64,000 nucleotides of DNA from Thermoanaerobaculia bacterium (GCA_963664405.1 OY761158.1:6020556-6084555); one strand, 5' to 3'. Counted from the stretch's first letter, positions 2,784 to 23,870 are shown. Notes: generated by a model not told the origin, from the letters alone. A program made the numbers and translations.

Positions 2784-3282
2784 CCCTGCACGATCGAGCA
2801 GTAGAAAATACGGATATGCACGCATTAGGCGTGGTTTAGATCTGTGAACAACTAGAAGTTGAGTATTGACGAGCGCAGAAGAAGCATGCCACCATCGCAT
2901 CTGATACAACGCCAAGCGGGAAGAACAAGGTATGACCAAACAGAGGGATCGGGGAGAAGGGTTTCAAGAGATCGGCGGACTGATTCAGAACGTTGTGAAG
3001 GAGTACAAGGAGTACAAGCCTCTTAGTCTGGTGGAGAAGCGGCTAATCAAGAATTCCACCGAGATCAGGACATTTCCACCCGAAGAAGTAAACTTCCTGC
3101 ACTCGCTCTTCTGCCAAACTATCTTGCCCTATCGCAGCCTCCCTGAGCGCGTTTGGGAACATGCCAATGGCCGAGCAAATGTCCGCGTCGAAGCGGGGAG
3201 CGCCTATCACCCGGACAGCGACAAATTCGTGGTCATGGAGGCCTGTGGCTCCGCGCACTACTGGGGCCGGGAAATAGGAGAG

Positions 3283-5130
3283 TGAGAGTGAGCACGATAA
3301 TCGATGGCGGTCCGATCACGATAAGTGATGGTCGCGTAGCCTTTTGAAGGACTTAGCCGAAGCTGCGTTTCGCTGCCACTTGCCTCAGACGGTCTTGTTC
3401 ACAGTATTTGATGGCGATTCGAGGAAACCCGATCACGTTGTCTGGTGGGAATGGGTGTTCCGTTCAAGGTATCTGAGGGCGCAACCAGGGGCCCAAGCGC
3501 GATGGAAGCTCGGCGAACCGCCTCGATCGCCCATCAGATAGCGTGCCGTTCATCCCATCGCTGCGTGTCAGCCCTCGTTCAGCGTGATCAGCGAAAGAAC
3601 AAGTATGGACTGCGCGTCAGGCCCCGACGGCGGATGTGTCCCGTTTTTTGTGGAAATGGGTTCAGGCGTAGTCCTCCGAGTCGTCTTTTGCTAAATCCTA
3701 CCGTTTACGCGGCCCTCTCAACCTCGAGCAGGAGCTGAAGCGCCCGGTAGCCGTTAATCCTTCGCAGGTGTATCTGCCCGAAGGCGACGAGCCCCCAGAG
3801 GAGCGTGACGCCGGCAGCCTCGGTGGCAAAGGAGCCCTGGGTTTTAGTGCGGCGACGAAACTCGCGGTTCAGGTTCTCCAGAGCGTTGGTCGTGCGCACC
3901 GAACTCCACAGCGATTTGGGGAGCTCGTAGAAGGTCAGTAGCTGGAACCCTGCCTCCTCAAGGCTGCGAGCCACCGCCGGGACTAGTCGCGACCACTTGG
4001 TGACGAACGCCGCGTAGGCCTTGCGGGCCTGTGCCGCGTCCTCGGCTCGTACGATCGAGTGCCAGTCACGCCGCAGCTCGTCGTGTGCGTGCACCGGGCA
4101 GTGTTTCTTCAGATTCTCCCACTTGTGTTGGACGCAGCGCTGGACTTTGACCTCAGGCCAAGCCTTCAGCGCCGCGGCCAGCCCTTTGTGGCCATCCGTG
4201 ACCAGGTAGCGCGGAGCCTGAAGACCTCGGGCCTTCAGATCCTCGATCAGCCACTTCCAGTGCTCGGCGGCCTCGCTCGCGGCTAAACGTAAGGCCACCA
4301 GCACCTTGGTGCCGTCCGGAGTCACACCCAGCACCACCAGCACCGGTACCGAGACCACTCGACGGGCCAAGCGGACCTTCAGGTGAAAGCCATCGAGAAA
4401 CAGAAGCACGTAGGACTCCTCCGACAGATCGCGCTCACTCCAGCGAGCAAAAAGCTCCTTCAGCCGAGACACCACACGCGAAACTGCGCTCTTGGACAGG
4501 TGCTCCTCACCCAGCAGCGGAGCCAATGCCTTCTTGATCCGGCGGCTGTTAGCGCCAGCCAGATACGCACCCAGGATCGCGTCATCGACCTCCTGCGTAC
4601 GACGAGCGTAACGCGGCACGATCGCACTGCGAAACTCTACGCTGGCCCCATCCTCGCCGACTAGCCGTCCTCGTGGAATGTCCAGTTCCTTCGACCCACA
4701 CGCCGTCGTGATCAGACGACGCTGCTTGCCGTTGCGATAGCCCGCACGCTCGCCTGAACGCTCGTAGGCGCTGCAGCCCAGCGCCTCGGACAGCTCTTCC
4801 TCGAGTGTGATCTCGATCGCCGCACGAACACGCTCGCGTAACAACGAACGAATGTCCTGACGGAAGCGTGCAGCTTCCCCTTCCTCGTTGATATTCTCCA
4901 CCATGGCGTAATCCTCCGTTCGCCCTAACCGGCGATGTGTTTGACCACTAGGAGGTTACGCCATTCTCAATTTCCACAGCATTCGGGACGGATCCCCGAC
5001 GGCCCGCCTTCGGCGGGGATGATGCCGACGGACCTAGTCTTGAGCACACTACTTGAGGGACCAAACACCCTTCCCTCACCTACCGTGCTCAGAATGGCCA
5101 ACATTCCCATCGATTATCGTGCTCACTCTC
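3283..5130 (-). mobile_element. IS256-family insertion sequence with perfect 25-bp terminal inverted repeats TGAGAGTGAGCACGATAATCGATGG
   Basis: The left IR at 3283-3307 is the reverse complement of the right IR at 5106-5130. Comparison with the uninterrupted copy (6651-6675 ggagagctcggcc) shows an apparent GAGAG duplication at the junctions. The element encodes a Transposase_mut-type protein. Confidence 0.85.
3705..4904 (-). CDS. IS256-family (mutator-type) transposase
   Basis: 399 aa. Motifs GYRNGKQRRLITTACGS...PRGR, SKSAVSRVVSRLKE, LFLDGFHLKVR and VTDGHKGL are characteristic of the IS256 family. Confidence 0.9.
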   Translation of the reverse strand: MVENINEEGEAARFRQDIRSLLRERVRAAIEITLEEELSEALGCSAYERSGERAGYRNGKQRRLITTACGSKELDIPRGRLVGEDGASVEFRSAIVPRYARRTQEVDDAILGAYLAGANSRRIKKALAPLLGEEHLSKSAVSRVVSRLKELFARWSERDLSEESYVLLFLDGFHLKVRLARRVVSVPVLVVLGVTPDGTKVLVALRLAASEAAEHWKWLIEDLKARGLQAPRYLVTDGHKGLAAALKAWPEVKVQRCVQHKWENLKKHCPVHAHDELRRDWHSIVRAEDAAQARKAYAAFVTKWSRLVPAVARSLEEAGFQLLTFYELPKSLWSSVRTTNALENLNREFRRRTKTQGSFATEAAGVTLLWGLVAFGQIHLRRINGYRALQLLLEVERAA

Positions 5131-5976
5131 AGAGAGCTCGGCCACTCGGTCGTCCTGCTGCCACCCCACCTGACCCACCGCTATGTCGGCGCCCACAAGA
5201 CCGATCGAACCGACACCAAAGGCATGCTCGAGGCGTATCGCAACGAAGACATCCTGCCTGTCCCTGTCAAGTCGCTCGAGCAACAAACGCTCACCACTCT
5301 GCATCGGATGCGCGCGGCCTACATCGGCGATCGTACGGCTCACTGCAACGCTCTACGCGGGCACTTGCGAGAATTCGGACACTTCATCCCTCTAGGACGT
5401 GCGCGCGTCGTGCCGAGGGTCCGAGAGCTGATCGCCGACGCCGAGACGGACATCCCCATGGCATTGCGCCCTCACTTCGCAGCGCAATGCGATCAGATCG
5501 AGCAGTTCCACGAGCGTATCGCGGAGATCGACAACCACATCCAAGCGCTCGCCAAACAGCTCGAAGCCGTGCAGCTGCTGATGACCATTCCTGGCATCGG
5601 GGTCCTGACCGCCACGGCCCTGGTGGCCTGGATCGGAGATGTCTCTCGCTTCAAGAGCGGACGCCATCTTGCCAGCTATCTCGGGCTCACGCCGCGCGAA
5701 CACTCCAGTGGCGCACGACGCTGGCTCGGACGCATCAGCAAACGCGGCGACGGCTATCTGCGCACGCTCCTGATCCACGGGGCCCGCTCCGTGCTGTCGT
5801 GGGCGAAGAGAAAACAACCCCAAGGCCGCCTCCAACAGTGGGCGCTGCACGTCGATACCCGCCGAGGACCCAACAAAGCCGCCGTTGCCCTCGCCAACAA
5901 GTTGGCCCGCATTGTCTGGGCCGTGTGGACCCGTAAGCGCGCCTTCGAGCCCAAGCCGTTGCTCGCTGCTGCCTAA
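5131..5976 (+). pseudogene. IS110-family transposase, C-terminal approximately 282 codons only. The N-terminal RuvC-like part was lost by truncation and the IS256 insertion
   Basis: Identical to residues ELGHSVVLLPP...KPLLAAA of the intact copy at 6464-7501. Confidence 0.85.
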
Positions 5977-6298
5977 GACGACCGAACGACCACAACCTAC
6001 TCGTAACCCCCATCCACTCACAGCTCGATCCAAGGACTTTGATGGTTTCCAGTCAGACTGGCGTGAGGGCACAAGCCGCTAGGAGCGTTGGCCCTCGAGG
6101 CCGTTTTCTCGGACGATTCGGCTCCCTCACGCGCACTTTTCCATCATGGCCCGGCGTGCACACATCGTCACGCCAATCTGAGGCCGGAGATACGTCTGCT
6201 GTCTGACCTACCACTCTCAGCCCGAAGACCGAGAAAACCAGAATCTCTCTATGAGTTGAAATCAACTACTTGACACGGGAGTCCAGATACACGCTCCT

Positions 6299-7825
6299 AG
6301 CCCCAGAAAACGCGCCTTCGGCCCGTTTTCCGGCCCATCCCCGCCTGAGAACTACTCGCCTGTCCGATACTCGGATGATGAAATGGACTCCCTGGCGACT
6401 TCGATCGGCATCTGTGTGCCGCGGGTCGCCCAAACCGAAACTCTAGTACTGGAAGGGAGCCCCATGAAGCATACCGTTATCGGTGTCGACCTGGCCAAGG
6501 ATGTGTTCGAGATCGCCGTGTCGCATGAGCCGGGAAAGGTGGCGGACCGGCATCGAGTCCGAAGAGCTGGCTTTTTGTCTTTCTTCGCACAACGCAAGCC
6601 CACGACGGTGGTCATGGAGGCCTGTGGCTCCGCGCACTACTGGGGCCGGGAAATAGGAGAGCTCGGCCACTCGGTCGTCCTGCTGCCACCCCACCTGACC
6701 CACCGCTATGTCGGCGCCCACAAGACCGATCGAACCGACACCAAAGGCATGCTCGAGGCGTATCGCAACGAAGACATCCTGCCTGTCCCTGTCAAGTCGC
6801 TCGAGCAACAAACGCTCACCACTCTGCATCGGATGCGCGCGGCCTACATCGGCGATCGTACGGCTCACTGCAACGCTCTACGCGGGCACTTGCGAGAATT
6901 CGGACACTTCATCCCTCTAGGACGTGCGCGCGTCGTGCCGAGGGTCCGAGAGCTGATCGCCGACGCCGAGACGGACATCCCCATGGCATTGCGCCCTCAC
7001 TTCGCAGCGCAATGCGATCAGATCGAGCAGTTCCACGAGCGTATCGCGGAGATCGACAACCACATCCAAGCGCTCGCCAAACAGCTCGAAGCCGTGCAGC
7101 TGCTGATGACCATTCCTGGCATCGGGGTCCTGACCGCCACGGCCCTGGTGGCCTGGATCGGAGATGTCTCTCGCTTCAAGAGCGGACGCCATCTTGCCAG
7201 CTATCTCGGGCTCACGCCGCGCGAACACTCCAGTGGCGCACGACGCTGGCTCGGACGCATCAGCAAACGCGGCGACGGCTATCTGCGCACGCTCCTGATC
7301 CACGGGGCCCGCTCCGTGCTGTCGTGGGCGAAGAGAAAACAACCCCAAGGCCGCCTCCAACAGTGGGCGCTGCACGTCGATACCCGCCGAGGACCCAACA
7401 AAGCCGCCGTTGCCCTCGCCAACAAGTTGGCCCGCATTGTCTGGGCCGTGTGGACCCGTAAGCGCGCCTTCGAGCCCAAGCCGTTGCTCGCTGCTGCCTA
7501 AGACGACCGAACGACCACAACCTACTCGTAACCCCCATCCACTCACAGCTCGATCCAAGGACTTTGATGGTTTCCAGTCAGACTGGCGTGAGGGCACAAG
7601 CCGCTAGGAGCGTTGGCCCTCGAGGCCGTTTTCTCGGACGATTCGGCTCCCTCACGCGCACTTTTCCATCATGGCCCGGCGTGCACACATCGTCACGCCA
7701 ATCTGAGGCCGGAGATACGTCTGCTGTCTGACCTACCACTCTCAGCCCGAAGACCGAGAAAACTAGAATCTCTCTATGAGTTGAAATCAACTACTTGACA
7801 CGGGAGTCCAGATACACGCTCCTAG
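6299..7825 (+). mobile_element. IS110-family element copy 2 (apparently intact). The left end abuts the right end of copy 1, giving a head-to-tail tandem
   Basis: Boundaries are inferred from where the copy1/copy2 identity begins and ends. There are no obvious terminal inverted repeats, as is typical of the IS110 family. An outward-facing TTGACA lies 24 bp from the right end. The right end is followed by a 16-bp perfect palindrome. Confidence 0.75.
6464..7501 (+). CDS. IS110-family (DEDD) transposase
   Basis: 345 aa from MKHTVIGVDLAKDVFEIAV. The N-terminus has the typical DEDD/RuvC-like fold and the C-terminal domain is present. An identical second copy lies at 5131-5976. Confidence 0.9.
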   Translation: MKHTVIGVDLAKDVFEIAVSHEPGKVADRHRVRRAGFLSFFAQRKPTTVVMEACGSAHYWGREIGELGHSVVLLPPHLTHRYVGAHKTDRTDTKGMLEAYRNEDILPVPVKSLEQQTLTTLHRMRAAYIGDRTAHCNALRGHLREFGHFIPLGRARVVPRVRELIADAETDIPMALRPHFAAQCDQIEQFHERIAEIDNHIQALAKQLEAVQLLMTIPGIGVLTATALVAWIGDVSRFKSGRHLASYLGLTPREHSSGARRWLGRISKRGDGYLRTLLIHGARSVLSWAKRKQPQGRLQQWALHVDTRRGPNKAAVALANKLARIVWAVWTRKRAFEPKPLLAAA

Positions 7826-7830
7826 GTTGG

Positions 7831-7868
7831 GTAGGTCTGGGAATGGTGATTGCCATTCCCAGACCTAC
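7831..7868. repeat. Perfect 16-bp-stem palindrome GTAGGTCTGGGAATGG-tgattg-CCATTCCCAGACCTAC abutting the IS110 right end. Likely REP-like target of the IS
   Basis: Read directly from the sequence. The IS110/IS1111 family is known to insert next to palindromic repeats. Confidence 0.7.
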
Positions 7869-7875
7869 TGATGCC

Positions 7876-7960
7876 GTTTGGCGCCGCGGACGGCGCGCGT
7901 CGCCCATCCGGAGGACCGGATGGCCTCCCTGCTTCGGAAGGGGTGCCTCTTGCGGATTGA
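7876..7960. repeat. REP-like repeat (type a) with hairpins GCGCCG-cgga-CGGCGC and CCATCCGG-agga-CCGGATGG
   Basis: A second copy with the same order and hairpins lies at 9827-9990. The hairpin core is shared with the 127-133-bp repeat family at 20078 and 23550. Confidence 0.65.
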
Positions 7961-7998
7961 GCATTTCCAGGCTCCTGGGATATATGCTCCGGTGATCC

Positions 7999-8703
7999 GT
8001 GAGCTGGATTTCCGATCCCAATGCCTGGATCGCCCTGGCGGCGCTGACGTCGATCGAGATCGTTCTCGGTATCGACAACATCATCTTCATCACGATTCTC
8101 GTCGGCCGCCTGCCCGAGGCCGAGCGGGGTCGTGCGCGCACGTTTGGGCTACTGCTGGCGATGCTGACCAGGATTGCCCTGCTCTTCTCACTGACCTTCT
8201 TCATGGGCCTCACCGAGCCGCTGCTGGTGGTCCTGGGGCACGAGATCTCGTGGCGTGATGTCATCTTGATTGCTGGGGGTCTCTTCCTTTTGGGCAAGAG
8301 CACCTTCGAGATTCACGCCAAGCTCGAGGGCGGTCACGGGGCTCCATCGTCGGGCTCGCGTGGTGGCTTCTTGATGGTGATGGGCCAGATCGCCCTTCTC
8401 GACATCGTGTTCTCCATCGACTCGGTGATCACTGCCATCGGTTTGGCCGACCAGGTGGTGATCATGGTCATCGCCGTTGTTGCGGCAGTGCTCGTCATGC
8501 TAGTTTCGGCAAGACCCATTGGAGATTTCGTCGAGCGGCACCCGACCTTGAAGATGCTCGCGTTGAGCTTCTTGCTCTTGATCGGAACAACGCTCGTGGC
8601 GGATGGCCTCGGGTTTCACTTCCCGAAAGGCTATGTCTATTTCGCGATGGCGTTCTCGGTGTTTGTCGAAATGCTCAATCTGCGCTTGCGCAGAGTGTCG
8701 TAA
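7999..8703 (+). CDS. TerC-family integral membrane protein
   Basis: Multi-pass hydrophobic protein with TerC signatures (LGIDNIIF..., SIDSVITAIGL...). Confidence 0.8.
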   Translation: MSWISDPNAWIALAALTSIEIVLGIDNIIFITILVGRLPEAERGRARTFGLLLAMLTRIALLFSLTFFMGLTEPLLVVLGHEISWRDVILIAGGLFLLGKSTFEIHAKLEGGHGAPSSGSRGGFLMVMGQIALLDIVFSIDSVITAIGLADQVVIMVIAVVAAVLVMLVSARPIGDFVERHPTLKMLALSFLLLIGTTLVADGLGFHFPKGYVYFAMAFSVFVEMLNLRLRRVS

Positions 8704-9780: not shown

Positions 9781-9826
9781 GTCTGAGAGTGGTGAATACC
9801 ACTCTCAGACTCAGTTTGTTGTTTGG
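9778..9826 (+). terminator. Rho-independent terminator: 15-bp perfect stem TGAGTCTGAGAGTGG / CCACTCTCAGACTCA, loop tgaata, then a T-rich tract gtttgttgttt
   Basis: Read directly. The stop codon of the upstream gene is the first three bases of the stem. Confidence 0.8.
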
Positions 9827-9990
9827 CGCCGCGGACGGCGCGTGTTGGCCATCCGGAGGACCGGATGGCCAACTGGCTTCGGAGCAGGCGATCTTCGGAA
9901 GACCTGCTGTTTGGCGCTGCGGTGGCGCGCGTTGCTGATCAGGCGGACCGGTGGGACCCCTGGCTTCGAAGGAGCGATCTCCTTCCTAGC
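9827..9990. repeat. REP-like repeat (type a), second copy. It carries the same GCGCCGCGGACGGCGC and GGCCATCCGGAGGACCGGATGGCC hairpins as 7876-7960
   Basis: Direct sequence comparison. Confidence 0.65.
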
Positions 9991-20077: not shown

Positions 20078-20209
20078 CTAGGCTCCAGAAATGATGGCTA
20101 TCATTTCCTCCGCCTAGTTGTCTTTTGGCGCCGAGGACGGCGCACTCAGGCGTTGCTTCCTATTCGCTCCGGGAAACGGCTCTGGCCGAATACTCGGACA
20201 CGCTCCTAG
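20078..20209. repeat. Single copy of the 127-133-bp structured repeat unit (CTAG...GAAATGAT-nnnn-ATCATTTC...TTGGCGCCGAGGACGGCGC...CCGAATACTCGGACACGCTCCTAG)
   Basis: About 95% identical to the units at 23550-23809. It lies in the divergent promoter region between the 19058-20011 gene (minus) and the 20449-21348 gene (plus). Confidence 0.75.
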
Positions 20210-23549: not shown

Positions 23550-23870
23550 CTAGGCTCCAGAAATGATGGCTATCATTTCCTCCGCCTAGTTGTCTCTTGG
23601 CGCCGAGGACGGCGCACTCAGGCGTAGCTTCTTATTCGCTCCGGGAAACGGCTCAGGCCGAATACTCGGACACGCTCCTAGCCTCCAGAAATGATTGATA
23701 TCATTTCCTCCGGCTAGTTGCCCTTTGGCGCCGAGGACGGCGCACTCGGGCGTAGCTTCCTATTCGCTCCGGGAAACGGCTCAGGAGGAATACTCGGACA
23801 CGCTCCTAGCCTCCGGGAGTGATCGCTATCTAGTTTCTGTTTGGCGCCGAGGACGGCCCATTCGGAGTCC
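23550..23870. repeat. Tandem array of about 2.5 copies of the 127-133-bp structured repeat, immediately upstream of the amidase start codon
   Basis: Units at 23550-23676, 23677-23809 and a degenerate partial 23806 to about 23870. Each is bounded by CTAG and contains the GAAATGAT/ATCATTTC and GGCGCCGAGGACGGCGC hairpins. There are no spacers, so this is not CRISPR. Confidence 0.8.

Follow-up and report, generated by a model that had tools for sequence, protein, structure and literature searches.

The 64,000-nucleotide stretch of DNA analyzed here (the window) comes from an Acidobacteriota metagenome-assembled genome (MAG; CAXWPL010000005.1) and carries one intact and one broken copy of an insertion sequence (IS) of the IS110 family. 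The intact copy (copy 2) is 1439 bp long, starts with TGATGAAATGGACTCCC and ends with GGGAGTCCAGATA, and consists of a short left end, a transposase gene and a long right end (Table 1); the broken copy (copy 1) lies directly upstream and is itself split by an IS256-family element. We consider it very probable that the intact element is a member of the IS1111 group inserted site-specifically in a repeat of the host, with a guide RNA encoded in its right end (7560-7733) and a leader in its left end. An earlier reading of this DNA from the sequence alone (the sequence-only reading) had instead suggested such an RNA, as a bridge RNA of the IS621 kind, in a 165-bp left end at 6299-6463.

Table 1. 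Features of the IS locus and of the associated host repeats; positions are counted from the first letter of the window.
Feature	Position	Strand	Basis or remarks
Intact IS1111-group element, copy 2	6376-7814	+	Conserved termini in 33 relatives, copy comparisons, uninterrupted sites
Left part of split host repeat (short variant of ~128-bp family)	6301-6375	+	Not part of the IS; divergence from third copy, family termini
True left end and transposase leader	6376-6463	+	88 nt; alignment and RNAalifold, pair counts
Transposase/recombinase	6464-7501	+	345 aa; DEDD RuvC-like and Transposase_20, GLTPREHSSG; Pfam, NCBIfam, homologue N-termini
Predicted bridge/seekRNA module	7560-7733	+	Target-binding and donor-side sub-modules; covariation; model R2, 105 bits
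Guide T, (G)CUAGGAGCGU	7603-7613	+	Reverse complement of right flank ACGCTCCTAG(C)
Hairpin P4 (UGGCCC-UCGA-GGCCG)	7614-7628	+	Between the target guides; 92.9-99.5% of cells paired, compensatory changes
Guide B, CUCGGAC	7633-7639	+	Same sense as left target CTCGGA plus first right-target base (C)
Putative donor-side sub-module	7666-7719	+	CCAUCAU, GGCC/GGCC helix, AGAUACG
Right terminus	7795-7814	+	-35-like TTGACA (7795-7800), right subterminal repeat GGGAGTCCA (7802-7810), terminal GATA
Right part of split host repeat	7815-7825	+	CACGCTCCTAG, right half of target
18-nt target of the element, CTCGGAC·ACGCTCCTAGC			Read by guides T and B together
Empty target site TACTCGGA^CACGCTCCTAG	20191-20209; 23663-23681; 23791-23809	+	End of 128-bp repeat unit
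~128-bp repeat units	20082-20209; 23554-23681; 23682-23809		CCGAATACTCGGA at unit ends
Wider repeat family members	7826-7900; 9823-9841; 20125-20143; 23597-23615; 23725-23743; 23841-23859
Broken copy 1, 3' 1158 nt of the IS	5132-6289	+	Followed by target half 6290-6300
Fragment of copy 1, 54 nt	3229-3282		Piece of transposase gene, equals 6608-6661
Complete IS256-family element, 1849 bp	3283-5131		Perfect 25-bp terminal inverted repeats; NCBIfam IS256 transposase match

The transposase of the intact copy has both domains of the IS110 family, the N-terminal DEDD_Tnp_IS110 domain (PF01548, E 9.6e-14) and the C-terminal Transposase_20 domain (PF02371, E 8.6e-29), and matches the NCBIfam model NF033542, 'IS110 family RNA-guided transposase', with 337 bits against a cut-off of 140; the family assignment made in the sequence-only reading is thus confirmed. 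The start at ATG 6464 is supported by the aligned N-termini of homologues and a conserved Shine-Dalgarno (SD) sequence, while the public gene call P0001 (6383-7501, 372 aa) starts at an ATG within the left subterminal repeat and is probably too long. In the IS1111 group the left end is short and the right end, which holds the guide RNA 3' of the gene, is long; the subterminal inverted repeats measure 7-17 bp, and the transposase has 330-350 aa and the motif GL-P----S(T)G. In IS110-group elements such as IS621 the arrangement is the reverse (PMC11208160, PMC11187229). The ends of the window element measure 88 and 313 nt (89-117 and 294-443 nt in its relatives) and carry 9-bp subterminal repeats, TGGACTCCC (6384-6392) on the left and GGGAGTCCA on the right, which lie 8 and 4 nt from the respective ends and correspond to repeats of 11 bp, TGGACTCCTCC, in the relatives. 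GLTPREHSSG, the GL-P----SG motif of the 345-aa transposase, is invariant in the homologue alignment, and full-length matches were obtained to the transposases of the nearest named relatives, ISPa25 (49.9% identity), ISEc11 (39.9%) and IS5075 (32.7%), whereas the match to the IS621 protein is confined to the C-terminal domain (E 8.6e-10). On the basis of these end lengths, repeats, protein features and similarities we assign the element to the IS1111 group of the IS110 family and not to the IS621-like type that had been proposed.

The boundaries of the element were drawn with the help of 80 loci holding relatives of the transposase (51-61% identity), nearly all of them from Acidobacteriota and other MAGs. 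In genomes with several copies, identity between copies stops 89-117 nt 5' of the ATG and 294-443 nt 3' of the stop codon, and the termini common to all elements compared are TGATG(R)(R)ATGGACTCC(TCC) on the left and GGAG(G)AGTCCAGATA on the right. The conserved terminus TGATGAAATGGACTCC begins at 6376 in the window, which leaves 88 nt for the left end; the right end covers 7502-7814. Both ends had previously been drawn too wide: a non-coding stretch of 163 nt (6301-6463) does precede the ATG, directly after the end of the upstream partial copy in …ACACGCTCCTAG (6289-6300), but the left end proper is little more than half of the 165 bp assigned to it, and the right end is 313 nt instead of 322 bp. 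The 1525-bp period of the locus was likewise rejected as the length of the IS, being the sum of the 1439-bp IS and an 86-bp repeat unit.

A look-up of further genomic places of the window transposase returned one locus alone, a distant third copy on the same contig (L001), which differs from the window copy at 2/1439 IS positions and at 8/75 positions immediately upstream. Some of the eight upstream differences are compensatory within a hairpin, as expected of a structured repeat of the host; at this hairpin (6301-6332 in the window, 1338-1369 in L001) CCAGAAAACG…CGTTTTCCGG is replaced by CCGGAGAATG…CGTTCTCCGG, and these changes suggest selection on the structure of the repeat. A 73%-identical relative in another genome occupies the same site in a long and a short variant of the repeat (two copies, L085 and L086, with left junctions …ACTCGGA/TGATG and …TCTCGGA/TGATG); the long variant reads …GAATACTCGGA/TGATG…CAGATA/CACGCTCCTAG… and the short variant has the left junction …CCGAATTCTCGGA/TGATG…. 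The uninterrupted site TACTCGGA^CACGCTCCTAG has three matches in the window (0 expected), at the ends of 128-bp repeats, and its comparison with the occupied junctions leaves at most one ambiguous base, indicating site-specific insertion without target duplication. The last 6 nt of 6301-6375, CTCGGA (6370-6375), form the left half of this target. Given the divergence of L001, the flanks of the relative and the three empty sites, 6301-6375 and 7815-7825 are one repeat unit split by the insertion of the IS. The first two bases of the right flank (7815-7816) are YG in 28/34 relatives, matching the first two bases of the left end (TG/CG). This flanking pair of the relatives resembles a core dinucleotide; the window element and the 73%-identical relative sit at CA instead.

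Alignment of the right ends of 34 distinct elements revealed a block of ~165-180 nt whose conservation far exceeds that of the sequence around it and which corresponds to 7560-7733 (~174 nt) in the window. RNAalifold predicted 28 pairs on this alignment, 15 of them with compensatory changes. After completion by hand, the structure has 87.1% of cells paired, compared with 35-47% for slid partners, and 18 pairs with double changes, values reached by 0/500 shuffles; a model-guided alignment of 46 matches raised these figures to 92.5% of cells paired and 21 covarying pairs. Across the right-end tests as a whole, 87-92.5% of cells were paired against 29-47% in slid controls, with 18-22 covarying pairs, and many G-U pairs in the module are compatible with the + strand only. 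A local CCGG…CCGG hairpin at 7575-7588 was rejected in favor of P1, a long-range helix whose central pair covaries. The module was revealed by comparative alignment only; folding the 324 nt 3' of the stop codon as a single sequence gave no useful signal (z = -0.7), and Rfam yielded no relevant family in either end, at the gathering threshold over the whole window or at E<=10 over 4500-8500.

A covariance model (R2) built from the relatives alone, with no window or L001 sequence, gave two matches on the 64-kb window, one at 7560-7733 in the intact element and one at 6035-6208 in the broken copy (105 bits, E 2.6e-22). The next match in the window had an E-value of 0.37, and none lay within 6299-6463. 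R2 also matches the right ends of the named elements ISPa25 (112 bits) and ISEc11 (57 bits, E 2.7e-12). The right-end RNA of ISEc11 co-purifies with its transposase and is needed for circle formation and transposition (PMC11187229). The covarying structure and this homology to the right-end RNA of ISEc11 and ISPa25 place the predicted guide RNA of the window element in the right end, 3' of the transposase gene; like its ISEc11 counterpart (PMC11187229), it would be expressed, bound by the recombinase and needed for transposition. The sequence-only reading had suggested that the element uses a bridge-type guide RNA and had named 7502-7823 as a second region to be folded; the covarying module agrees with the former and lies within the latter.

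An internal loop of the module holds two variable segments, T and B, on either side of hairpin P4. T matches 7816-7825 perfectly over 10 nt, and T and B, with 10 nt and 7 nt, jointly read 18 contiguous bases of the target. Their relation to the flanking DNA was scored for 31 distinct elements or guides, with 10000 permutations per guide. With the right flank of its own element, T had a longest complementary run of 6.29 nt on average, compared with 3.66 nt for the flanks of others, and in 94/97/84% of cases B agreed with the left flank of its element at positions -1/-2/-3, compared with 25-36% in cross-pairings; neither value was reached in any permutation (0/10000 for each guide). The longest complementary run replaced a fixed-register score for T against the right flank, in which register shifts of 1 nt made the match look weaker than it is. 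When the loops of ISEc11 are aligned to the T and B positions they read CAGUAUUUU and GUGAAAAU, two overlapping sequences that make up the halves of the published ISEc11 target GTGAAAATACTG (PMC11187229). In the window module the top-strand guide precedes the bottom-strand guide, the order described for IS1111 guides (PMC11187229). In the window T matches the right flank and B the left, and in the relatives both loops vary in step with the flanks.

The same data bear on whether the right-end block could act as DNA only, as sites bound by the recombinase or as a terminator downstream of the gene, with no guide RNA involved. One terminator-like hairpin was indeed called at 7614-7628, but the pairs preserved by covariation include many G-U, which on the opposite strand would read A-C. 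Both loops also follow the flanking target in the sense/antisense pattern expected of guides, and RNAs derived from the homologous region of ISEc11 co-purify with its transposase and must be present in cis or in trans (PMC11187229). We regard a DNA-only function as highly unlikely and a guide RNA as the better account of the block.

The 3' part of the module is candidate for the recognition of the donor. Its CCAUCAU (7666-7672) is complementary to the start of the left end (ATGATGG-like), and its AGAUACG (7713-7719) has the same sense as the right terminus AGATA followed by the usual YG; the two segments flank an invariant GGCC/GGCC helix that bears a variable hairpin with covarying pairs. AGAUACG changes together with the right terminus in three lineages, L072 (ATATACG) and L030/L067 (AGATATG). 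By analogy, donor recognition is presumably the task of this second sub-module.

The left end carries a terminal extension, TGATGAA(A), and after it the left subterminal repeat. Next come a hairpin conserved in the relatives (6394-6431) and, at 6451-6459, the SD-like GGAAGGGAG, which pairs with the left subterminal repeat in a long-range helix (GGACUCC…/…GGAGUCC-like). In an alignment of 29 left ends this structure has 90.5% of cells paired, compared with 34-51% in slid controls, and compensatory changes at 12/20 pairs, and 0/500 shuffles reach the percentage paired, the number of compensatory pairs or the covariation score. In one relative (L005) the left repeat and the SD copy have changed together with the right repeat unchanged, which favors an RNA helix. 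As it has no loops that track the flanks, the structure is a transposase leader and not a guide RNA. The IS621-like bridge RNA formerly placed at 6299-6463, and held to be missing from the truncated copy, could appeal to this covarying structure in the real left end, to the non-coding stretch 5' of the ATG, and to a fold of 6301-6463 that is better than shuffles, if only mildly so (z = -2.2). Half of that interval, however, is host repeat, and there is no Rfam match and no family covariance-model match at E<=1 within it; the left-end structure is without flank-matching variable loops, and its long helix sequesters the ribosome-binding site. The guide loops that do track the flanks sit in the right end, where IS1111-type elements encode their RNA (PMC11208160, PMC11187229). 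We accordingly give a left-end guide RNA almost no credence.

In this leader the left repeat pairs with the SD region, itself a third copy of the repeat, and the transposase would then be translated solely from transcripts that start inside the repeat, at a promoter of the circle junction. TTGAC/TTGCN is found at a fixed distance from the right end in the relatives, and joining the right end to the left end of the window element places TTGACA (7795-7800) upstream of TGAAAT (6379-6384) with a 17-nt spacer. By analogy with ISEc11 (PMC11187229), this joining would form a junction promoter. Transcription from it would begin within the repeat and leave the ribosome-binding site free, and read-through transcripts would fold back and be translationally silent.

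Taken together, these results suggest the following course of events. The element has inserted into a structured repeat of the host of ~86-128 bp, between …CTCGGA and CACGCTCCTAG…. The guide RNA, probably processed from the transposase transcript, would present two short target guides in one internal loop on either side of a hairpin, and its second sub-module, matching the IS ends through CCAUCAU and AGAUACG, would presumably hold the donor; the DEDD recombinase and the RNA would then join the excised circular IS to the target, with no target duplication. Several observations weigh against this account. The crossover bases are CA here and YG in most relatives, so that each guide covers only one of the two bases. 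CCAUCA pairs with the 5' UGAUGG of the RNA itself in 29-31/33 sequences, compared with 24/33 for the left-end DNA; this self-pairing is as good or better and makes the donor-loop assignment uncertain. The self-paired helix (P0), with compensatory changes at 4/6 pairs, crosses the covarying helix P1. A promoter scan of 6200-7900 found no sigma-70-like promoter in the element, and no empty repeat unit of the short variant was found in the window. The crossing of P0 and P1 implies either a pseudoknot or alternative states; as both helices covary, the RNA might form the former, or might switch between a target-loading and a donor-loading state. We tentatively suggest that two features of this clade, the SD-gating leader helix and the crossing P0/P1 helices of the guide RNA, are previously undescribed.

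ACACGCTCCTAG occurs five times in the window against 0.27 expected, CCGAATACTCGGA is found in the ~128-bp repeats at 20186 and 23658, and the left-end sequence of the intact IS occurs once. Motifs common to the IS "ends" and the repeats had been noted in the sequence-only reading and ascribed either to target/donor recognition or to an origin of the repeats as miniature inverted-repeat transposable elements (MITEs). The first explanation holds as regards the target, since the shared motifs are its two halves, which are contiguous in the empty sites. In the second, the ~128-bp repeats would be MITE-like derivatives of the IS that share its ends and are mobilized by it, and it is true that the units stand in tandem, end in ACACGCTCCTAG and start with a hairpin resembling 6301-6332. 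With the boundaries corrected, however, the repeats have neither TGATGAAATGGACTCC nor GGGAGTCCAGATA, the motifs held in common are exactly the target halves, and the hairpin adjoining the IS evolves independently of it. With both real IS termini absent from the repeats, the MITE idea fails; the likeness arose from ends drawn too wide, and we think such an origin very improbable. The repeats also belong to a wider family of extragenic structured repeats, consisting of a hairpin and then TTGGCGCCG(A/C)GGACGGCGC, with 8 matches against 0.17 expected. The unit to the right of the IS, a divergent member without the IS target, forms a perfect 16-bp hairpin (7831-7868) and has a weak, sub-threshold Rfam match to BjrC80 (17.9 bits).

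The broken copy 1 is a direct repeat of the intact one: 5132-6300 and 6657-7825, offset by 1525, differ at a single position. It was split by the insertion of the IS256-family element, whose transposase is encoded on the minus strand (3705-4904), and a further breakpoint at 3228/3229, an unrelated junction, marks a second rearrangement. GAGAG stands on both sides of the IS256-family element. As a result of this insertion and the further breakpoint, copy 1 is without a left end and the N-terminus of the transposase, and it is for this reason, and not for want of the RNA, that it is non-autonomous; the sequence-only reading was correct about the missing left end and the lack of autonomy but not about the RNA, whose module is complete at 6035-6208. 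This intact RNA gene could supply guide RNA in trans. Additional modules were also seen in two of the relatives' loci. In L047 (2575-3958; OZ250169.1, a Marinacidobacterales MAG) four tandem guide-RNA modules, spaced by 396/292/396 nt, lie 3' of one transposase gene and are each preceded by a piece of the 3' end of that gene, and L012 has two right-end modules, at 2594 and 3239. These arrays of partial copies with a right end only may be orphan guide-RNA genes.

The window element resembles ISEc11, ISKpn4, ISPa11 and ISPa25 (Siddiquee et al., 2024, PMC11187229; Durrant et al., 2024, PMC11208160) in its short left end and long right end, and shares with the seekRNA elements of the IS1111 group the subterminal inverted repeats, set in by a few extra bases at the termini, the lack of target duplication, a 330-350-aa transposase with GL-P----SG, an RNA 3' of the gene, a top-strand-complementary guide 5' of the bottom-strand one and a structured repeat as target. 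It differs from these relatives in its transposase (identity from 50% with ISPa25 to 33% with IS5075), its Acidobacteriota host, its target CTCGGA^CACGCTCCTAG in a local repeat family and its crossover at CA in place of the usual YG. With IS621 (Durrant et al., 2024; Hiraizumi et al., 2024) it has in common a DEDD recombinase with Transposase_20, a circular intermediate and a structured RNA whose internal loops pair with both strands of target and, presumably, donor; in IS621, by contrast, it is the left end that encodes the RNA, the other end is short, the subterminal repeats are 2-3 bp long and the order of the guides is reversed, and the proteins match in the C-terminal domain only. Orientation-specific insertion into an extragenic structured repeat is also seen in ISPa11 and ISPpu9/ISPpu10, which target repetitive extragenic palindromic (REP) sequences (Tobes and Pareja, 2006; PMC12288879), as are extra copies of the right-end RNA gene without a full transposase; the repeat family and the host are different, and the orphan RNA copy of the window comes from disruption of the IS.

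The window element is an ordinary IS1111-type RNA-guided IS in its natural repeat target, useful as a clean natural example and as a correction of annotation, and it leaves the current picture of the mechanism of RNA-guided IS elements unchanged. For annotation, the guide RNA of an IS110-family element should be sought in the end that fits its subgroup, and target DNA can be mistaken for part of the IS when its ends are set by the period of a tandem repeat. For the family, this locus extends the IS1111-type elements by an Acidobacteriota clade with a well-defined 18-nt target and readable guide loops, and the element is a possible further orthologue for programmable recombination.

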